A stretch of DNA of 64,000 nucleotides from an uncultured Chloroflexia bacterium (GTDB lineage Bacteria > Chloroflexota > Limnocylindria > Limnocylindrales > CSP1-4): assembly GCA_963712745.1 (NCBI GenBank), contig CAVQJC010000020.1, positions 1-64,000 on the forward strand, given 5' to 3'. The position numbers and the translations under genes are program-made. A model generated the notes under the pieces. It saw nothing but the letters and a program-made list of their open reading frames with translations. It ran no database searches and was not told the origin of the DNA. Positions 77-33,003 of this stretch are shown here, piece by piece; positions within the stretch are counted from its first letter, which is position 1, and each line of letters starts with the position of its first letter.

Positions 77-264
77 CAGACCTCACGCTCAGATCGAGCG
101 TCTGACTTGGTTTCGGTCCTAGCACGCCGCCATGGGACCAGCGATCGACGGTTGCCCAACTCGATGGCCAAGACTCCGAAGCGGAGGCAAGAGACCTCAC
201 CAGGGACGCAAGTATCGCATCCCTGGACATCAAGCCGACGCTGCGAGCCTCGGTCGCCACCTCC
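39..264. repeat. Left copy of ~225-bp direct repeat (tRNA 5' half plus upstream DNA); att-like island boundary
   Basis: Near-identical to 11189-11412, with 3 substitutions and 2 single-base indels. Confidence 0.9.
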
Positions 265-271
265 CTGAACC

Positions 272-352
272 TGCCAAGCCCGATGAGACACCCAGTCACA
301 GAACCACTGAGGTGGCACCTCCTTCGGTGGATTGATCCAGACGACGCTCGGC
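272..352 (-). mobile_element. IS3-family end remnant
   Basis: TGCCAAGCCCGATGAGACAC resembles the IS3 end at 48729 (CGTCAAGTCCAGTGAGACAC); encodes LPSVVWINPPKEV, like the OrfB C-terminus LPGPAWINKPKEV. Confidence 0.7.
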
Positions 353-1713
353 AGTGTCGCACCGCGATGAGCGAGGCCAGCGTCTCGGCATCGAAGGTGC
401 GGCCCTGGACATCGACGACGGCGCGGTCGCGGACGAGCCGCTCGACCTCGGCATCGGTGACGACCACGACCGAGAGGCGGTAGTCCACGAGCCGACCCAG
501 TTCGACGGCTCGACGGAACCAGAGCCGGTGGGCCTCGACGCCGAAGTGCTCGACATCGTCCATCGAGGCGAACTCGACATCCTCGCAGTCCCTCGAGCCA
601 CGTCCGGCTGGACTTCGTGTAGACGCGAGGCGTGGCAGTCGCGAAGAGCCGTCGCTTGGCCCGGATGCGATCGCCGTCGAGGACGACCTTCGTGTCGCGC
701 TTCTTGGCGTTGCCACGGCTGGTGATGCCGGCGACCCGGTGTGCTTCATCGGCCACGACGAGGTCGAAGGCCGGCACCGACGGGTCCTCCTGGGCCTCGG
801 CGATGCGGGCCGAGGAGGCGTAGGTGCCGAAGACGACGCGACGACCCTTGCCCTTGAGGAAGACCGCGATGTCGGCGGGGTCGGTCGTGACCCGGACACC
901 CAGCTCGTCGGGGTGGACGGTCCACTCGTCCTGGACCCATCGTGTCGGCATCGGAGCAGACGCCGAGGTCGATGAAGTCGTAGCTCGGCCTGCTCGCGCC
1001 ACTGGGTGCGGAACTGCTTCAGCAGCAGCAGCGTGGGCACGAGCACGAGGACGAGCCGGTCCTTGCGGGCCTCGGTGATCCAGCGGGTGACGAGCGTCTT
1101 GCCGGTGCCGCAGGCCATGATGAGCTGGACCCGCTCGTGCTCCTCGAGGGCCTTGAGCGTGTCGGCGATGGCGGCGGTCTGGTCGGGCTCGCGTGGGCTC
1201 CTTGCGCGCGACCGTGGGCCTGGCCCTGCCGCTGACCGCCTCGAGGGCGCCGGTCCAGTCGATGGTGCTGTCGACGAGGGCATCGCGGTGGACCCAGGTC
1301 ACGTCGCCGCGGCCGGCGGTGGCCTTCACGGCGTTGGCCGAGCGCCCGACGGCGTTGCTGACGATGACCCAGCGCTCGAAGAGGTCGCTGCGGAAGCTGA
1401 AGAGCGTGGCCACCTCGCCCTGGGTCACGCTGCGCGCGGGGTCGCTGTGGAACTTCACCTGCACCGCGACCCGCTTGCCCTCGCCGTCGACCGCCACGAT
1501 GTCGACGCCCTGGTCGGACTTCAGGCCGAGGCTGATGCGCTCGGGCCAGTCGTCCCACAGCCAGGCCTGCCTGAAGCCGACGACCGGGTCGTGGCGGAGG
1601 TAGTGGAGGACGGCATGCTCGAAGGCATCGCCCATGGGCGTCTTCTCACCGAGCGCCGCGATCGTCCCCTCGATGGTCTCGAAGGACGCGGGCGCACCGC
1701 TATCCGAGGACAT
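353..1713 (-). pseudogene. Mrr-like nuclease + SF2 helicase (Type ISP/LlaGI-like N-terminal part), frameshifted and truncated
   Basis: FE..DQGVDIVA..AVQVK nuclease motif; MACGTGKT Walker A in a shifted frame; DEAH; ATATP; cut off at the IS3 remnant. Confidence 0.75.
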
Positions 1714-1766
1714 CGTGGGTTAGAGGGTAGCGAGTCGAGGACTGGCCCATGACGCCGACACGGGGA

Positions 1767-1794
1767 GAGGCCCGCCACTCGCGGGACGGGCCTC
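1767..1794 (-). terminator. Conserved hairpin repeat, copy 1
   Basis: GAGGCCCGTCCC-GCGA-G(T)GGCGGGCCTC on the minus strand, just after a cargo gene stop. Confidence 0.7.
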
Positions 1795-1817
1795 GTCCCA
1801 TTGAGTTGCGGGTGGGC

Positions 1818-2343
1818 TCAGTACTCGTGGGTGCAGGTGACGCTCCACACGGGCTCTACCTCCATGTTGCCCAAGGCGAACCATGTCAACTCATGGACCC
1901 CAGTCGGGGCTGAGGTAGAGACCATCGCCGAGTCATAGAACAAGCAGTTCCAGATGCCAGACGAGCCCCAGCCGTCAGTGAAGGAATAGCCCGCACCGAT
2001 GCCCCCGTCGGGCCCCAGGCAGTAGGCCGAGTAGTCGCCGTAGAACGTGACCTTCTCGTCCCCGCTGAACCACAGCTTGACTACCTTCTCGGCATAGACG
2101 CCGTCGTACCTCGGCTTGTTGAGCTCGGTGCAGGCATCCGGGGCCGGCGTGCCACCCTTCGCGGCGAATGACACGCACTGGCCCTGGCTCAGTGAAGGCG
2201 GTGCCCTTGGCGTCGACGAGGTCCTTCCAGCCACCACTCTTGCAGGCGGCCTTGTCTGGGTCTTGCTTCGCCACCGCGATGCCCGATGTCATCATGGCCA
2301 TCAGGCCACCGACGAGCATGGCGACCACCAGTCGCTTCTTCAT
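1818..2343 (-). CDS. Secreted Cys-rich protein (CKxGGW...QGQCV motif), frameshift near 2190
   Basis: Signal peptide MKKRLVVAMLVGG..; RBS; two ORF-track frames join; paralog of 8699-9421. Confidence 0.65.
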
Positions 2344-2423
2344 GGGACTCCCCCTCTTGCCGGGCCGCACCGGAGGTGGCCACTCAGCACGCACGGCGCG
2401 ACCACGTACTGAGATTCTCCCAT

Positions 2424-2457
2424 CGCTGGCAATCAGGGCAGGCCTGATACGAGTGGA
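2424..2457. promoter_or_regulatory. 34-bp conserved divergent promoter/operator block with ATCAGG-N5-CCTGAT palindrome
   Basis: Identical to 10949-10982; lies between a cargo gene start and a mini-ORF start. Confidence 0.55.
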
Positions 2458-2475
2458 GCCGGCGACCCTCCACCC

Positions 2476-2689
2476 ATGACCGAGCATCCCGGCGAGCACA
2501 TCGACGAGACCGACGCCATCGCTGGCCGGGCTCGAGCGCGCTGGCCTCATCACCGTCACGCAGCGCGAGGACGGCGAGCCGGTCCACACGCTCACGCCGC
2601 AGGGCGAGCAGGTGTCGCGACAGATGGCGCTGTCGAGCGAGGACGACGCGGCGGTGTTGCTGGATGCGCTGGTAGAGGCGCGGGAATAA
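2476..2689 (+). pseudogene. Mini-ORF family A (possible winged-helix), frameshifted
   Basis: MTEH..IDETDAI / LERAGLITVTQREDGEPVHTLTPQGEQVSRQMA; homologous to 8439-8642. Confidence 0.65.
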
Positions 2690-2692
2690 GAT

Positions 2693-2720
2693 GAGGCCCG
2701 CCCCTCGTGGGACGGGCCTC
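2693..2720 (-). terminator. Conserved hairpin repeat, copy 2
   Basis: GAGGCCCGCCCCTCGTGGGACGGGCCTC. Confidence 0.7.
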
Positions 2721-2757
2721 TTAGTCTTCGCATCGCCGGCGAGGTGCGGTCCATTGG

Positions 2758-4083
2758 TCAGGACTGGGGTGGGCTGAGGAGAGCGACAGAGACGAGGTCG
2801 TCGCCATCGTCAGTACCTGAGACGGTCACGACCAGGCGGTCGCCGGCGACGGCCATGTCCACGTCGTAGATCCACATGCCAGCCACAGGCAGTATCGGCT
2901 GTGCCTCCTCCAGTGCCCAGTTGGTGCCGTCACTGGATGCCCAGAGCGCCAGCAGGTCGCCGTCCTGGCCCCCTTGCGCGCTCGGGCCCACGAGCAGGGC
3001 GAAGAAGTGGCCGCCCTGGACGGTGAGGGCCTTCAACTGGCCGTCCACGGGACTGCCGTAGGCGACATGCCACTCGGTGCCGTCAGGGGTGAGCAGCATG
3101 GCCGAGCCGCACGGGTCCAAGCAGATCGGGGCATCGACCACCAGCCGCTCCGCCACTGCGGCGACCGAGGTGATCGCGCCATGGGGACGGGGCATCGCGC
3201 TCGCCTCCTTCTTCCACGAGAGCCCGTCCGGCGAGCGCCAGAGCTGCCCCCAGCAGGTGCCGTTCCAGGCCCAGGGGTCCTTGTCGAAGGCTGGCATGCA
3301 GGCCTGTCCCACGGCGACGACGCCGTTTGCCAGCAGTCCGGCCCCGCTTTCCGTGCCCGGGTACAGGGCGAAGGCGTCGACGCCCCCAGCCGATGGATCC
3401 TCCATCGTGTCGATGTAGCCACCGATCTCGAAGACCTCCTTGGCCCTGGCCTGGGTCCAGGTCTTGCCGTCCGGACTGGACCAGATGGCGGCGCGAGGTG
3501 CCTTCTCGAGGTAGATGACGCCGCCCAGCAGGTAGCCGTCGTCGGCACCGAGCATCGTGCGCAGCCGGGTGCCCGTCGGGAAGGCGTCCATGGCGGTGGC
3601 CCGCTCCCATGATGTCCCATCGTCCGAGCGCCAGACCGCCGATCGCTGACCACCCTGCTCGGCCACGCGCCCGAAGACGAGGAAGCCCGCAGGGCCGTAC
3701 GCGACCCCTTGCAGGCCGATCTCCGGGCCGCTGGTGGTGGGCCGCATGATTCCGAGGTCGAGGCCAGACGAGCGAGGGTCCACGGCCTCCCAGGTGATGC
3801 CATCGGGGCTGGTCCAGGCCGGCCCCCAGCAGCGCGACGTCTCTCGTCGCCCCTGGATGCAGGCCCGCTGCCCGACCGCGACCATCGATGATGGCCCGAC
3901 CGCGATGCCGACAGCCATGGTCGTGCCGATGGTCTGGGGCAGCACGGTGGCTGTCCAGCCGTTCGCGCTTGCCGTGGTCTCGCCCCGGTCGTCTTGTGCT
4001 TGAGCCACCGGAGCCAGCGCCGGCACCCCACCGATCACGAGGAACGTCAACATAGCCGCAGCAGCGGCCCACGGACTGCGCAT
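2758..4083 (-). CDS. Secreted beta-propeller-like protein with Asp-box-like WxSxDGxxW repeats
   Basis: Signal peptide, several W-x-S-x-DG-x-x-W repeats, AAGGAG RBS before ATG 4083. Confidence 0.8.
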   Translation of the reverse strand: MRSPWAAAAAMLTFLVIGGVPALAPVAQAQDDRGETTASANGWTATVLPQTIGTTMAVGIAVGPSSMVAVGQRACIQGRRETSRCWGPAWTSPDGITWEAVDPRSSGLDLGIMRPTTSGPEIGLQGVAYGPAGFLVFGRVAEQGGQRSAVWRSDDGTSWERATAMDAFPTGTRLRTMLGADDGYLLGGVIYLEKAPRAAIWSSPDGKTWTQARAKEVFEIGGYIDTMEDPSAGGVDAFALYPGTESGAGLLANGVVAVGQACMPAFDKDPWAWNGTCWGQLWRSPDGLSWKKEASAMPRPHGAITSVAAVAERLVVDAPICLDPCGSAMLLTPDGTEWHVAYGSPVDGQLKALTVQGGHFFALLVGPSAQGGQDGDLLALWASSDGTNWALEEAQPILPVAGMWIYDVDMAVAGDRLVVTVSGTDDGDDLVSVALLSPPQS

Positions 4084-24434: not shown

Positions 24435-25364
24435 CTCTGGTTCTGTCGCGGAGTCCTCCGCGTAGTACTCCATGAAGGCCTCTTCAAGACGAGCCGGCTC
24501 GATGAGCAGATCGTGGATGCCGACTCCCTGGAGTGCCGCCACGAGCGGCCCCGGGTCGCCCTCGAGCTGGCAGGTAAGCACGCCCTCGCGCACGTGGACC
24601 TCACTCACGCCCGGCACGCCGTCCAGTTCCGGGGCGTCGCCTTCGAGTCGTATCTCCACTCGTCGGCGACGGCGCGCCAGCAGCTGGCCGATGTCGGTCA
24701 GGGCCACGAGCTCGCCCTTGCGCACGATGGCCACGCGATCACACACCCGTTCGACCTCGCTGAGTATGTGCGAGGAGAAGAACACCGTACGGCCGGCGCG
24801 CTGGCGGTCGTCGAGGATCTCGTAGAAGGCTCGCTGCATCAGCGGGTCCAGCCCCTCGGTCGGCTCATCGAGGATGGCCAGCTCGGGATCGCTCTGGAGA
24901 GCCTGGATGATGCCCACCTTCTGGCGCATGCCCCGGGAATAATCACGGATCTGGCGGCGCAGGTCAGCCTGGCTCAGCTCCAGGCGTTCGGTCAGCTCAT
25001 CCCGCAATGGCGAGCGCCGGCCGTCGAGCGCCGAGAGGTAGGAGAGCTGCTCGGCTCCTGTCATCGAGTCGTAGAAGGCGATGCCGCCAGGAAGGTAGCC
25101 GGTGCGGCGACGGATCTCCTCGGAATCGCTGACGATGTCGCGCCCCAGCACCTCTGCCCGACCGACCGTCGGGTGCAGGTAGCCCAGCAGCAGGCGGATC
25201 GTCGTCGACTTGCCGGCTCCATTGGGCCCAAGGAAGCCGAAGATCTCGCCCTCGTTGACCTCGATCGAGAGGTCGTGCAACGCCCGCACCGACGCGCTCC
25301 TGTGGAGTGGCATGCCATGACCGCGGTATGCCTTGCCCAGCGACTCGGTGACGATGGCGGGCAT
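24420..25364 (-). CDS. ABC transporter ATP-binding protein
   Basis: GPNGAGKST, YSRGMRQK, ILDEPT, SSH. Confidence 0.93.
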   Translation of the reverse strand: MPAIVTESLGKAYRGHGMPLHRSASVRALHDLSIEVNEGEIFGFLGPNGAGKSTTIRLLLGYLHPTVGRAEVLGRDIVSDSEEIRRRTGYLPGGIAFYDSMTGAEQLSYLSALDGRRSPLRDELTERLELSQADLRRQIRDYSRGMRQKVGIIQALQSDPELAILDEPTEGLDPLMQRAFYEILDDRQRAGRTVFFSSHILSEVERVCDRVAIVRKGELVALTDIGQLLARRRRRVEIRLEGDAPELDGVPGVSEVHVREGVLTCQLEGDPGPLVAALQGVGIHDLLIEPARLEEAFMEYYAEDSATEPELVGG

Positions 25365-26086
25365 CAGCGTGGGTCGGGCGCCCCTCCGTCATGGGCAGAC
25401 GCGCGACGCCCGGCCAGGCGCCAGCCCAGCGGCAGCGCCCCGGCCGCCAGCAGGAGCTTGGCGACGTCGCCGGGCACGAAGGGGTAGAGCCCCAAGGGCA
25501 GGACGTCAGTCACGCTGGCGCTCAGCGCCAGTGCCAGCCAGGTGAGCCCGAGCGCGTAGATGATAAGCGTGCCCAGGGCCATAGCCCCGAGCGAGCCGCC
25601 GAAGCGGCGATCCCAGCCGCGCTCCGCAAGCGCGCCCACCACCACCGAGGCCAGCAGGAACCCGACGAGGTAGCCGCCGGTGGCTCCAAGCACGAGCCCA
25701 CCCTGCCTGACAGCGACGAAGGTCTCGAGTCCGGACCCTCCAGAAGCGAAGACGGGCAGGCCGATGGCACCGATGAGCAGGTAGATGCCGGTCGCAGAGA
25801 TGCCTCGTCGCGCACCCAGCGCCGCGCTCGTGAAGAGCACGCCGAACGTTTGCAGCGTGATCGGCACGTAGGGATTGTCGGGCACGTAGAAGCGGCCCAG
25901 GCTCACGGCCGGCAACTCGAAGGCGATGCGGGCGCCGATGATGAGCAGGATCACGCCGCCGGCGATGAGCGTGACATCACGGGCCCAGGCCGGGGCCCGC
26001 TGGGCGAGGCTCGAGGGGATGAGGTAGTCGCCGAGAGTGAGACCTCGTCGGGTCGCGAGGTCACCGGCGTAAGGGGCGGTGGTCAT
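25364..26086 (-). CDS. bioY: Biotin transporter BioY
   Basis: VPITLQTFGV, YLLIGAIGLPVFA, TGGYLVGF, PFVPGD. Confidence 0.88.
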   Translation of the reverse strand: MTTAPYAGDLATRRGLTLGDYLIPSSLAQRAPAWARDVTLIAGGVILLIIGARIAFELPAVSLGRFYVPDNPYVPITLQTFGVLFTSAALGARRGISATGIYLLIGAIGLPVFASGGSGLETFVAVRQGGLVLGATGGYLVGFLLASVVVGALAERGWDRRFGGSLGAMALGTLIIYALGLTWLALALSASVTDVLPLGLYPFVPGDVAKLLLAAGALPLGWRLAGRRASAHDGGAPDPR

Positions 26087-26158
26087 CGGGCGGATGGTAT
26101 CAGGGCGCGGGCACCACGATCCTTCGAATGCCGCCTAGATACCCCAGGCCCGTAGCTG

Positions 26159-27386
26159 TCAAGCAGCAAGCTGCTCGAGGGGTCGACCCCAGGCCGTCTC
26201 CTCGTCGTAGCGGGTCCGATGCGTGAGGCAGCCGTGGAGGATGCCCACGAGCCTGTTGGCGAGCTTGCGACGGGCGGTCCTGGACGTGTGTGGTCCCGGG
26301 TCGTGGGCGTCGTAGTAGGCGCGGGCACCGGGTGACGCGCTCAGGGCACAGAGGGCCCACTGGTACGTGGCATCGGCGAGCCGGCGGTTGCGCACGAGAC
26401 GAGCCACGACGACGTGGCTCGTGCCCGATGCCCGCGTGATCGGGCTGGTGCCCGCGTAGTTGCGCCGGGCCCTAGCATCGGCATAGCGGTCGGGGGCATC
26501 CCCGAACTCCGCGAGCACCCGGGCGCCGAGGACAGCACCGAGTCCAGGCAGACTTCGCAGGATCTCGGCGTCCGGGTGACGATCGAAGGCATCGACGAGC
26601 TCGGCCTCGAGCCGGGCGATCTGCTCGCTCAAGGTCCTGATGACCGCCACGAGCGCGGTGGTGTTCGCCGCCTGGGCCTCGGCCACGAGCGCTGGAGCCG
26701 CCAGTTGTGGCGCCCGCAGGGCCGAGCGGATCTCGCTCGCCCGCTGCTCGAGGTTCCGCTGTCGGCCGCCCTTGCGCAGGAGCGAGACGGTCTTCGCCTG
26801 GCTGAGCTTGCGTCCGCGCACAGGATCGGGTGCCGCCATGAGCACCGCGGTCGCATCGGGGTGCGCGAGGTCCTCGAAGGCGACCATGGCCCCCGGGTAG
26901 TACTCGCGCAGGGCGCTGCGCAGCGCGTTGGTCTGGCGCCCCCGCGTCCAGATGAGGTTCTGGTGGGCCCGGGCGAGGACCTTGATGGCTGCCTGGAGCT
27001 CGCTGTCGGGGGCCACCCGACGATGATGCTGGCGGTCGGTGCGGACGAAGATCGGCGAGGACCCGTGCGTCGCCCCGGTCGGACTTGGCCCGGCTCGTCG
27101 TATGGCGCTCGCGATATCTCGAGGCCGCGAGCGGGTTGACCGCATACACCCCGTACCCCGCCGCAAGCAGGGCGGTCACGAGCAGGCCCCGGTCGGTCTC
27201 GATGCCGACGATCACATCGGCCGGCTCGTCGGCATGCTCACCGAGCAGCGCGTGCAGGCGGGCCACGCCCTCGAGGCCCTCGGGGATGCGCCTGGTCGCG
27301 AGCACCTCCCCCTCGCTGTCGAGCACGCAGACGTCGTGGTGCGTCTCGGCCCAGTCGATGCCGATGAAGACGATCGCTCCCTCCAT
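26159..27386 (-). CDS. IS110 recombinase (frameshift near 27050)
   Basis: IGIDWA..HDV, GIET, KSDRGDA, SLPGLG, YAGTSPITRASG. Confidence 0.85.
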
Positions 27387-27419
27387 CTCCGCTTCGGAGC
27401 CGCAGGAGGCGGTCATGGC

Positions 27420-27590
27420 GCCCTAATGGACCAGTGCTCATCGGCACGTCACCCCAGCAGCCATCTCGACCGTCCTCGCCGACCGCCGGGGGCACGATCT
27501 AGCCGTGGGACTCAGACGTCCTGACTCGGCCAGTGCTCACCCGGTGGTCCGGCTCGGCGACCAGTCTGAACCCTCAGTCCGGTCTGGCCC
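27420..27590 (-). ncRNA. Putative IS110 bridge RNA
   Basis: Contains segments matching both target flanks and both halves of the circle junction. Confidence 0.75.
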
Positions 27591-27605
27591 ATTAGACTCG
27601 GTGAC

Positions 27606-28346
27606 ATGCGTCGCCACTGGAAGCTCGCCGCTCTCATCCTCGTCATCGTCCTGGTGGTCGCGGGGGCGTTGGCCTACCTCTGGCTGAACAACCTGGTCGA
27701 CCCCATGCCGGAGACCGAGCCGGCCATGATCTCCGACGAGGTCGTGACCGTGGACGACGAGCACTGGCTCACGTTCACTCCCACCGATCCCTCCACTACC
27801 GGCTTCATCTTCTACCCCGGCGGCCGAGTCCCCGCCCAGGCCTATGCCCCGCCGGTTCGGGCCATCGCCGAAGCCGGTCACACCAGCATCGTCGTGCCCA
27901 TGCCGTTCGGACTCGCGGTCCTCTCCCCCGACGCCGCCGACGATGTCATCGAAGCGCATCCTGACATCGAACGCTGGGTCATCGGAGGTCACTCGCTGGG
28001 CGGCGCCATGGCCGCCCAGTACGCCCGGGGCCACGACACCATCGATGGCCTCGCCCTGTGGGCGGCCTACCCGCCCGACGGCACGGACCTGAGCGACAGC
28101 GACCTGGCGGTGAGCTCGATCTACGCCACCGAGGACGGACTGGCCACGGCCGACGAGATCGCCGCCTCCCGGGCTCAGCTGCCGGCCGAGGCGACGTTCG
28201 TGGAGATCGACGGCGGCAACCACGCCCAGTTCGGCTGGTACGGAGAGCAGGACGGCGACGGCGCGGCCACCATCACGCGCGAGGAACAGCAGACCCAGGT
28301 GGTGGCGGCCACGCTCGAACTCATCGAGGCGGTCGCTGCCCGGTAG
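27606..28346 (+). CDS. Alpha/beta hydrolase with N-terminal membrane anchor
   Basis: FYPGG, GGHSLGG, GGNHAQFGWYG. Confidence 0.88.
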   Translation: MRRHWKLAALILVIVLVVAGALAYLWLNNLVDPMPETEPAMISDEVVTVDDEHWLTFTPTDPSTTGFIFYPGGRVPAQAYAPPVRAIAEAGHTSIVVPMPFGLAVLSPDAADDVIEAHPDIERWVIGGHSLGGAMAAQYARGHDTIDGLALWAAYPPDGTDLSDSDLAVSSIYATEDGLATADEIAASRAQLPAEATFVEIDGGNHAQFGWYGEQDGDGAATITREEQQTQVVAATLELIEAVAAR

Positions 28347-31344: not shown

Positions 31345-31968
31345 CTACCTGCTGGCCCCGCTCGCGTCCTCGGCCGTGAGTTCGTCGCCGCAGACCTCGA
31401 AGGCGGCCTGGAACTCAGGTGACTTCTTGTCGATCTCGACATCGCTGCCCGCGAACCTCGATCCATCGGAAGCCGGGTCAGGCCAGTCGAGCCCCTGGTC
31501 ACGCATGCACGCGGCCAAACGAAGTGCCGCCTCCGTTTGCTCGGCCTGTAGCGCTGGGTCGAGCGCGGGCTTCATGGCGACGAGATAGTCGCCGCAGTCC
31601 GCCTGAGCGGCTGCGAAGGTCTCGTCGCCTTCGCCCGACTTGAGGGCAGCCTTGAAGGCCGGCTTGGACACGAGATTCCCGTCGACATCGAACTGGGGGT
31701 CGTCCGTTTCGATGCCGTGTTCCCGCATGCACGCGGCGTACGCAATCAGTGAATCCTCGGCGCTCAACTCCGGAGTCGGCGTGGTACTGGCCTGGGGGCT
31801 GGGAGGCGGTGTGCCCAGGGTCGCTACCTGTGCCTGCGCGGTCGGTGTCGTCTCGGCAACGGCCGCGAGCCCGATGCTGGCGAGCGCGAGGCCTCCGGCG
31901 ATCAGCGTGAAGGCGACGAGGCGCGGGACAGGGTGTCTGTGGTTGCGGATCGGTCGGATGAGGGACAT
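31345..31968 (-). CDS. Secreted protein with duplicated AACMRxxG..DP motif
   Basis: Signal peptide; YAACMREHG and LAACMRDQG repeats. Confidence 0.8.
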   Translation of the reverse strand: MSLIRPIRNHRHPVPRLVAFTLIAGGLALASIGLAAVAETTPTAQAQVATLGTPPPSPQASTTPTPELSAEDSLIAYAACMREHGIETDDPQFDVDGNLVSKPAFKAALKSGEGDETFAAAQADCGDYLVAMKPALDPALQAEQTEAALRLAACMRDQGLDWPDPASDGSRFAGSDVEIDKKSPEFQAAFEVCGDELTAEDASGASR

Positions 31969-32156
31969 GTGTCGGAGATCTCCCTGCCGTTGGGCCCTCG
32001 GCTTGATCGACGTGCCCTACGTGATGAAGACTAACCGTACTGGCGCCGCCACCCGTCAACTGGTCGGGATGGCGCGTCAGGCATCCGAGAGGAAGGTGGA
32101 CTCGCGTAGGGAGAACCAGCCACCCGCTGTGTACCCTACCCACGCACGACCTCCGT

Positions 32157-32193
32157 CGGGGTGTAGCACAGCGGTAGCGCACATGGCTTGGGA
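32157..32193 (+). pseudogene. tRNA-Pro 5'-half fragment, second copy
   Basis: CGGGGTGTAGCACAGCGGTAGCGCACATGGCTTGGGA; shares flanks with the 31196 copy. Confidence 0.65.
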
Positions 32194-32299
32194 GCCTTTC
32201 ATGCCGCGACCGTACACCCTCGAGTCACTCGAAGGTCAAGAGGTCACCGAGCCCAGAGCGAGGCCGAGTGCCGGCGAGTGTCCATCGCGCCGGCTCGGT

Positions 32300-32429
32300 C
32301 GCGGCTGCGCCCACGAGCTCGGCATCAGCGAGACGACGGTCCGCCAGCATCTGTCTGGTCTGTACCGGCGGACCGGGTGTGTGAACGCGGCGCAGGCGGC
32401 GTACTGGTTGGGGACGGGGCAGCTCGTGA
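32300..32429 (+). pseudogene. LuxR-type HTH fragment, second copy
   Basis: AHELGISETTVRQHLSGLYRRTGCVNAAQAAYWLG. Confidence 0.6.
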
Positions 32430-32451
32430 GCACGCGAGCCGGGGGTCGCAG

Positions 32452-33003
32452 CTACCCCTCGGGGGAGGACTCGGGCACCGGCGGTGGCCCCTCCGGGGTG
32501 ATGTGGCCGCTCAACTTGCAGCAGGGGCTGTTGTAGTCGATGACGACGTAGGCCATCAGGCCCTCGTAAACACCCTCACCGACGAGCCAGCCCGATACTT
32601 GGTCGGTCCCCTCGTCTTCAATCGTGATGGAGTCCAAGGTGCCCTCCCACGCACCGTCGTCGTTGACGACCCGGACGAGGGAGGAACCGATGACCCCGGT
32701 CACACCTGTCGCCGAGTCGCTGAGGGCTCCCTGCCGATAGTCCAGGGTGGTGCCGGAGTTCGTCATCAGCCCATCGATCCGTGAGTCGTTCGAGGCCCAC
32801 CGGGCGCTGAGCACGAAGGTTTCGGCGACGACGCCATCCGGACGTGTCTCGCTCGTCTCGACGGTGTAGCTGGGGTCGAGCCCGCCATCGCCGCTGAAGA
32901 ACGACGGGGCCATGGGGTCTTCGGACTGCGCGACGACCCCGATGGTCGAGGCCACGAGCAGGCCGATGGCGATGGCGGCGATGCGGGATGTGAGCTTCTT
33001 CAC
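32452..33003 (-). CDS. Secreted protein (SDPR...GEGxYEGL domain)
   Basis: AAGGAG RBS, signal peptide. Confidence 0.8.
   Translation of the reverse strand: MKKLTSRIAAIAIGLLVASTIGVVAQSEDPMAPSFFSGDGGLDPSYTVETSETRPDGVVAETFVLSARWASNDSRIDGLMTNSGTTLDYRQGALSDSATGVTGVIGSSLVRVVNDDGAWEGTLDSITIEDEGTDQVSGWLVGEGVYEGLMAYVVIDYNSPCCKLSGHITPEGPPPVPESSPEG

Follow-up and report, generated by a model that had tools for sequence, protein, structure and literature searches.

An IS110-group insertion sequence with a probable IS621-type bridge RNA and a frameshifted recombinase gene in an uncultured Chloroflexia bacterium

The window analysed here is a stretch of 64,000 nucleotides, positions 1 to 64,000 of contig CAVQJC010000020.1 (assembly GCA_963712745.1), from an uncultured Chloroflexia bacterium. 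It carries an element of 1,457 bp including one CT core (26137-27593, minus strand), with a recombinase gene, a long non-coding left end and a short right end (Table 1). The element is flanked by a BioY gene (25364-26086, minus strand) on one side and by an Abhydrolase_5 gene (27606-28346, plus strand) on the other. We read this feature as an IS110-group insertion sequence whose left end encodes an IS621-type bridge RNA upstream of the recombinase gene, and we put the probability of this reading at about 0.9. The mechanism class is already known; the element adds one more member to the IS110 family, with a recombinase gene that is broken in the assembled sequence. What is said below about IS621 and about the IS110 and IS1111 groups follows portions of two published papers (PMC11208160 and PMC11208158).

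Boundaries and recombinase of the element

The non-coding left end is about 178-180 nt long (27593-27417) and begins with AATGGGC in minus-strand reading, and the right end extends 20 nt past the stop codon (26158-26139). A long left end and a short right end are described for the IS110 group (PMC11208160), thus assigning the element to this group and not to the IS1111 group. The sequence common to the relatives spans only CT-AATGG to GGGT(A/G)T-CT. The initial annotation had taken the four bases TAGA as the shared core. This candidate was rejected, as the relatives' left junctions have nothing but CT in common ahead of AATGG (e.g. CAG-CT, TCG-CT) and their right junctions nothing but ..TCT. 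The core is therefore the dinucleotide CT, as in IS621; that donor and target also have the same base before it (T) and after it (A) is a coincidence. The insertion site reads GCCGCC-TAGA-CTCGG on the plus strand and lies about 10 nt upstream of the ATG of the alpha/beta-hydrolase gene. The empty target that had been reconstructed from the two flanks is borne out by orthologous sites in eight genomes of the same genus, where the BioY and hydrolase genes are adjacent, with one TA(G/C)ACT and no insertion.

The recombinase gene spans 27416 to 26159 on the minus strand and ends in a TGA stop codon (26161-26159); its reading frame is lost after ..RVLADL. In this copy, the Pfam domains PF01548 (DEDD_Tnp_IS110, 87.7 bits) and PF02371 (55.4 bits) are split across two frames. 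A second copy in the same assembly, at G000:C4:200601-202065 (the C4 copy), has both domains in one open reading frame (ORF), and this 388-aa ORF matches NF033542, 'IS110 family RNA-guided transposase', with 158.6 bits (cut-off 140). With a profile built from 18 family sequences, both domains of IS621 (8wt6, E 1.3e-18) and of ISCro4 (9t56, E 2.3e-17) are matched. Together, these matches uphold the family membership proposed earlier. Single sequences barely or never reach the two proteins: the N-terminal part finds ISCro4 best, at E 5.9e-4, and IS621 at E 0.003, and a search of the PDB with the 388-aa ORF of the C4 copy returned nothing at E up to 0.001. The relation, to ISCro4 as to IS621, is therefore distant in sequence. 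In the profile and family alignments, the motifs GID, IET, KSDRGDA and ASG align to the IS621 stretches that contain D11, E60, D102/D105 and S241, whose roles are given in PMC11208158, and the equivalents of all five catalytic residues are encoded in the window copy, over two frames. The IS621 Glu comes out in HMMER as an insert beside the family IET, and the equivalence of this residue thus rests on the motif and not on an alignment column.

Table 1. Features of the element and of its flanks in the window; sequences of guides, stems and half-sites are in minus-strand reading.
Feature	Position	Strand	Remarks
IS110-group insertion sequence	26137..27595	-	includes the second CT core copy at 27594-27595
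Left target half-site LT (ACCGAGT)	27596..27602	-	flank, outside the element; matches LTG 6/7
CT core, left junction	27594..27595	-	ahead of AATGG, relatives have only CT in common here
5' stem-loop of the predicted bridge RNA (GACCGG-A-CUGA..UCAG-A-CUGGUC)	27559..27584	-	minimum free energy (MFE) fold; outer pairs 86% paired in 25 relatives, inner pairs less
Target module outer stem, 5' strand (CCACCGGGUGAGCAC; first GAGCAC)	27533..27547	-	predicted to pair with 27495-27483
Left target guide, LTG (GCCGAGUCA)	27522..27530	-	proposed; equals top strand of LT+C
Target module inner hairpin (GGAC..GUCC)	27508..27521	-	predicted; 3 pairs, 96% of cells paired, 1 compensatory
Right target guide, RTG (CGGCUAGA; CGGCUAG(A))	27498..27505	-	proposed; complementary to T-CT-AGCCG
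Target module outer stem, 3' strand (GUGCCCCCGGCGG)	27483..27495	-	
Left donor guide, LDG (CUGGGGUGACG; CUGGGGU..C)	27447..27457	-	proposed; first 7 nt equal the right end at 26147-26141
Donor module inner hairpin (GUGC..GCAC; second GAGCAC)	27434..27447	-	predicted; 4 pairs, invariant in 25/25, 0 compensatory
Right donor guide, RDG (CCAUUAG)	27423..27429	-	proposed; complementary to left-end CT-AATGG, 7/7
Recombinase, N-terminal part (RuvC-like DEDD domain: GID, IET, KSDRGDA)	27048..27416	-	PF01548 positions 1-106; IS621 alignment
Frameshift site	27042..27056	-	window GCCGATCTTCGTCCG; C4 copy and G005:C2 copy ..GATCTCGTCC.., one T fewer
Recombinase, C-terminal part, other frame (coiled coil and Tnp domain, ASG serine)	26159..27046	-	PF01548 positions 106-155 and PF02371
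TTGACA, putative -35 of a circle-junction promoter	26157..26162	-	overlaps the TGA stop codon
Right end, left donor half-site LD (GCCTGGGGTAT)	26139..26149	-	
CT core, right junction	26137..26138	-	relatives read ..TCT, then differing bases AG/AC/CC/AA
Right target half-site RT (AGGCG)	26132..26136	-	flank

Guides, target sites and fold of the predicted RNA

Four guides can be proposed in the left end, the left and right target guides (LTG, RTG) and the left and right donor guides (LDG, RDG). Durrant et al. 2024 state the guide rule, in which the core belongs to all four pairings (PMC11208160), and the four proposed guides follow the order and the strand sense described there. The underlying identities had already been listed in the initial annotation, and all of them were reproduced: GACTCGG at 27523-29 equals 27595-601, ACCCCAG at 26141-47 equals 27451-57, CTAATGG at 27423-29 is the reverse complement of CCATTAG at 27589-95, and CGCCTAGA at 26132-39 agrees at 7/8 positions with CGGCTAGA, the reverse complement of TCTAGCCG at 27498-505. 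The further claim that the guides are readable against both target and donor gains from the IS621-like order and strand sense, from other insertions and from covariation across the relatives. The LTG ends in C-A here and in C-A, C-C, C-U or U-G in relatives; thus, it pairs with the core C and usually not with the core T. On the donor side, the RDG is nearly invariant among the relatives, and so is CTAATGG. The first seven nucleotides of the LDG equal the right end; at position 8 the window element has G vs A, a mismatch that is absent in the relatives, as position 8 is matched in 20/20 of those with a located right end. There it covaries with LD, being A-A in the loci L015, L017 and L095 and G-G in L014 and L016.

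When the left end of the window copy was shuffled 5,000 times with dinucleotides preserved, single guide matches of the same length were reached in 260 to 3,544 shuffles and are not rare; all four matches jointly were reached in 2/5,000. Taken by itself, the window gives only moderate evidence. Other insertion sites, and covariation across the relatives, give stronger support. Three independent insertions read ACCGAGT-CT-AGGCG in the window, CCTGAGT-CT-AGCCA at the C4 copy and GCCAAGT-CT-AGTCG at a copy in another species of the genus (the G005:C2 copy). The target predicted from the guides is GCCGAGT-CT-AGCCG, from which the three sites differ outside the core at 2, 3 and 2 of 12 positions, respectively, and the seven bases around the core, AGT-CT-AG, are matched at all three. 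Correspondingly, the LTG agrees with LT+C at 7/9, 6/9 and 7/9 positions in the same order, and the RTG matches RT5 at 4/5 positions at each site. The comparison with other insertion sites, which had been named as a check on the first reading, was thus passed by two further insertions of the same element at near-cognate sites.

For the relatives, 85 sequences were scanned, comprising 80 related loci and 5 sequences from the genus. The skeleton CTAATGG .. GAGCAC-LTG-hairpin-RTG-CGUGC .. LDG-CGUGCC..GAGCACUG-RDG is shared by 41 of the 85. The relatives also share a TTGAC..TCT right end and differ in their target guides. On the left side (40 loci, 24 distinct LTG), LT7 agrees with LTG7 at a mean of 4.45/7 positions in own pairs and 1.91 in cross pairs; on the right side (23 loci, 14 distinct RTG), RT5 agrees with the reverse complement of the RTG at a mean of 4.30/5 in own pairs and 2.03 in cross pairs. 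In a permutation test, 0/10,000 permutations reached the observed value, left or right.

On the side against the bridge RNA reading, several points limit the evidence from covariation. The 44/85 scanned sequences outside the skeleton pattern went unscored. The agreement between LDG and LD is partly circular, since the right ends were located with the LDG 7-mer, position 8 lying outside that pattern. The left-side fit is poor at L015 (3/9), L024 (3/9), L043 (1/9) and also at L091, and L058 fails on the right side (0/5). The LTG of L003 and of L016 fits only with one flank base skipped. In these two loci, the alignments are AGTAC[C]AGC against AGUACAGC and GTTCA[T]GC against GUUCAGC, and the skipped base could be a later mutation or a tolerated bulge.

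Single matches as common as those in the shuffles, together with an RNA that is known from sequence alone, leave room for a reading in which the matches arose by chance or are subterminal repeats that bind the protein, the target being chosen by the protein alone. We regard this as extremely improbable, the least probable of the alternatives we weighed. All four matches are seldom reached together in shuffles, and a protein-only model does not predict a covariation between guide and flank over 24 and 14 distinct guides. Moreover, compensatory changes maintain the stem that frames the target loop, and the guide mechanism has been shown experimentally for IS621 (PMC11208160, PMC11208158).

A related pair of loci was noted beside these comparisons. 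At G000:C1:178635-178860 (L004) lies a right-end fragment of an 83%-type relative with the flank AGAGC. The RTG of a full 83% copy at G005:C4:132564-134033 (L095), GCUCUAG, predicts exactly AGAGC, and L095 itself is also found at AGAGC.

The RNA fold proposed for the bridge RNA reading has a 5' stem-loop and, after it, two modules, in each of which an outer stem and an inner hairpin enclose an internal loop, in agreement with the folding check that the initial annotation had called for (MFE fold and test on 25 sequences). The structure was drawn by hand from the window sequence, which favours it, and was scored on 25 distinct left ends: 84.5% of the cells are paired over the whole structure, against 39-49% after shifting the partners by 1-3 columns. 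With 12 pairs, the target module's outer stem reaches 98.7% paired cells and 4 compensatory pairs. Support is weaker for the 5' stem-loop and the donor module's outer stem, whose 19 pairs (3+1+6+9) are about 64-86% paired; in the MAFFT alignment the two reach only about 64%, and this counts against the proposed architecture. RNAalifold on MAFFT alignments recovered the target outer stem and the donor inner hairpin and missed both the 5' stem-loop and the inner target hairpin. It also paired the LDG with bases on the RDG side, which was regarded as spurious, and the hand-drawn structure was scored instead. A search of Rfam at E up to 10 gave no family for the left end (27417-27595). A repeated motif had been placed in both loops. 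The repeat itself, GAGCACTGG (GAGCACUGG), does occur at two places of the minus strand, beginning at 27538 and 27439; its placement does not stand, as GAGCACUG forms stem strands, in the outer stem of the target module and in the inner hairpin of the donor module.

Because the outer stem of the donor module includes 27414-27406 and overlaps the first ATG at 27416, one may ask whether the left end is mainly a 5' leader that regulates translation of the recombinase, with the stem GAGGACGGUC:GACCGCCUC covering the AUG region and the guide-like matches being secondary. Earlier ideas of small RNAs that modulate the expression of IS110-family recombinases point the same way (Durrant et al., PMC11208160). 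We consider such a leader very unlikely as the main function, though a shade less so than chance matches, since the stem at the AUG region is only about 64% paired across the relatives and the covariation with flanking DNA would go unexplained. Regulatory and guide roles are in any case not exclusive.

Putative circle junction and state of the copies

The mechanism of the bridge RNA reading is carried over from the work on IS621, and the same holds for expression and excision, which are inferred by analogy. The element would excise as a circle, and the junction of right and left ends (RE-LE) would set TTGACA 17 nt from TCTAAT, thus driving the RNA. In the transcript, a 5' stem-loop would be followed by the target-binding module, with the GAGCAC:GUGC end of its outer stem and the GGAC..GUCC hairpin, and then by the donor-binding module, in which, around the same CT core, the LDG would read the right end of the element itself and the RDG its left end. 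Target and donor would be held through the RNA by a DEDD/Ser recombinase tetramer, which would exchange strands at CT.

The proposed junction promoter, TTGACA-N17-TCTAAT, can indeed be read from the two ends, with TTGACA (26162-26157), a 17-nt spacer (26156-26140) and then T, CT and AAT across the would-be circle junction. The -35 part is present in the relatives, TTGAC occurring in 23/23 located right ends, 7 of them with the 17-nt spacing and 16 with the box one base further away. Against the bridge RNA reading counts that the -10 hexamer is imperfect: TCTAAT agrees with TATAAT at 5/6 positions, without the A at position 2, and would fail the criterion of the scan for sigma-70-like sites. 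That scan, made on the linear state (26050-27750), gave 0 sites, a result on the side of the bridge RNA reading. Against present activity stands that the assembled contigs of four sequencing runs, a form of data that does not give the start, strand or level of an RNA, show neither a transcript start nor a circle junction nor an excised (empty) joint. RNA-library contigs extend over parts of the recombinase gene and over 27517-27599, which is no proof of transcription; one of them, from run X16, covers 27517-27599 and then continues into sequence unlike the window. Gaps in the cover of run X1 at 27052-27115 and 27372-27435 prove nothing. As a separate observation, the last Ala codon has as its third base the T before TGA, and this T is conserved in 23/23 located right ends of relatives despite the high-GC background.

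The assembly does contain the frameshift that had been reported for the recombinase gene. Compared with the C4 copy, the G005:C2 copy and one metagenome contig, the window copy has an additional T in GATCTTCGTC near 27049, which splits the frame between ..RVLADL and VRTDRQ... The C4 copy differs from the window copy inside the element by exactly two 1-nt indels and is otherwise identical to it across about 1,465 bp, and the duplication is therefore recent. The second indel is an extra A of the C4 copy in GCGATCGATCTTC near the position of 27371 (around codon 16). The G005:C2 copy, a 99% deletion derivative, carries neither indel, and in a contig from run X3 one base is missing at 27048, i.e. 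it has the unshifted version; each indel is thus private to one copy. The indels are either real or assembly errors, and they may be the latter: the genome assembly consists of 20 contigs with only 84.6% completeness, and both indels adjoin GATC. Sites next to GATC can be error-prone in long-read assemblies.

The state of the copies tells against a working element. The window copy has no intact single ORF, and the full recombinase cannot be made from it as assembled; in the C4 copy, the extra A removes every possible start (ATG, GTG or TTG) that would lie upstream of the first catalytic Asp. The 83% relatives are damaged too, L003 being 3'-truncated and L095 (in G005) frameshifted. The initial description of a fully decodable candidate recombinase was therefore overstated, with a 1-nt indel in both copies of the assembly. 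From the same evidence, the element can be taken as a dead relic, its guide matches being left over, like fossils, from an earlier insertion, in a genome that can no longer move it. To the damage already described, this explanation adds the internal deletion of the G005:C2 copy, a solo left-end fragment at G000:C5 and the missing empty-site and circle joints in the contigs of the four runs. It would dispute present activity only, and we hold it to be a serious possibility, somewhat short of even odds. Against it stand the near-identity of the two copies, hence their recent duplication, and the unshifted version at 27048 in the X3 contig; the indels themselves may be errors of assembly; and three other IS110-family genes in the genome, of other subgroups though they are, could conceivably act in trans.

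Three further observations concern the copies and their fragments. First, the G005:C2 copy (31456-32544, L106), from a different species of the genus, is a derivative shortened to 1,086 bp by internal deletion, with three blocks that are 98-99.6% identical to the element. Its presence there suggests that the element spread horizontally in recent time or that this copy is non-autonomous; one substitution stands in its RTG and one in its RDG (CGGCUGGA, CCAUCAG). Second, the solo fragment at G000:C5:43292-43356 (L005, 1501-1565) runs from CTAATGG through the 5' stem-loop to GAGCAC at 86% identity and passes into unrelated sequence exactly where the target loop begins. Third, a metagenome contig of run X3 has two substitutions within 27366-27376, 27371 C>T and 27372 G>C, which create the minus-strand ATG ATC TTC, the MIF.. 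start of most relatives. The window reads ATC GTC TTC at this place and has upstream ATGs at 27386 and 27416.

Choice of site and comparison with known systems

Where the element inserts leads to a more tentative idea. The bridge RNA of the close subclade might be tuned to a -10 hexamer (TAGACT, of the type TANNNT) a few bases upstream of start codons, and the genes targeted in this way would probably be leaderless or have a short leader; we hold this idea to be rather less likely than not. TANNNT is the actinobacterial -10 consensus. In the orientation of the gene, the target reads TAGACT. Donor and target agree on T-CT-A, and insertion therefore rebuilds TAGACT at the left junction, so that the neighbouring gene may keep its -10 after insertion. 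In the eight orthologous empty sites, TA(G/C)ACT is kept, 3-9 nt before ATG. With left junctions located in the window (27593-27608), L002 (2958-2974), L106 and L095, each of the four subclade insertions (window, C4, G005:C2 and G005:C4) is 9-13 nt upstream of a start codon that belongs to a long ORF, against a background of 28% for random places, and the long ORF beside each of them faces away from the left end. Family-wide, proximity to start codons is not enriched, at 15/38 insertions against 289/1,025 random places, and only the close subclade shows the bias. If the idea is true, the hexamer would be a promoter-proximal 'safe harbour', placing the element in a conserved and recurrent sequence, and would inform how such elements pick harmless sites. 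It is the sole point here that goes beyond the textbook.

IS621 of E. coli, with a 177-nt bridge RNA (PMC11208160, PMC11208158, 8wt6), is the closest point of comparison. In the portions of these papers followed here, the RNA of IS621 lies in a long left end upstream of the recombinase, with a short right end; the core is CT; a 5' stem-loop, a target module and a donor module follow each other in this order; LTG and LDG are the top strand of the left half-sites, and RTG and RDG are complementary to the core plus 5 nt of the right half-sites; the recombinase has the DEDD and Ser residues; and the -35 lies in the right end with the -10 across the core. All of these have their likeness in the window element, the RNA modules as predicted ones and the -35 and -10 as putative ones, and the distance from the core to RDG+4 is also 177 nt there. 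The differences from IS621 are as follows. The protein here is about 405 aa long against 326 aa and only distantly related; the LTG does not pair with the core T, the base at that position being A here and C, G or U in relatives; the same GAGCAC:GUGC helix serves here as target outer stem and as donor inner hairpin; and the element, which stands in a high-GC bacterium, is known as yet from its sequence. The IS1111 group shares the DEDD recombinase and the RNA-guided mechanism (PMC11208160) and differs in that its RNA lies in a long right end, with subterminal inverted repeats of 7-17 bp, whereas the long end here is the left one, about 180 against 20 nt.

The relatives (L014-L093), from Actinomycetota, Chloroflexia metagenome-assembled genomes and Mycobacterium, share 49-83% protein identity with the element and fall in NF033542; a Mycobacterium-like group has an insert of 20-30 nt in the 5' stem-loop. 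According to Durrant et al. 2024 (PMC11208160, in the part followed here), bridge RNAs are predicted in 85.7% of the IS110-group elements in ISfinder, and natural guides and targets agree with 0-2 mismatches. With bridge RNAs catalogued at such scale and an NCBI family named 'RNA-guided transposase', the element adds little that is new for the biology of the family. None of the papers listed by a literature search on IS110 elements in Actinobacteria and Mycobacterium contains 'bridge RNA'. The practical value of the element lies in being a cleanly decodable high-GC example with three natural targets, an empty site that is clear, and a set of some 40 relatives whose guides differ. The annotation of guide, stem and core bases worked out here could serve the search for bridge recombinases that work in Actinomycetota.

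A minor match concerns the opposite strand of the recombinase gene. The Rfam family RF02464 (Actinobacteria sRNA Ms_AS-4) matches at 26471-26552 on the plus strand with 71.2 bits, against a gathering score of 50, antisense to the part that encodes the Transposase_20 domain, and no other Rfam match exceeds its gathering score. This match probably reflects conserved IS110-family coding sequence and not a separate RNA gene.

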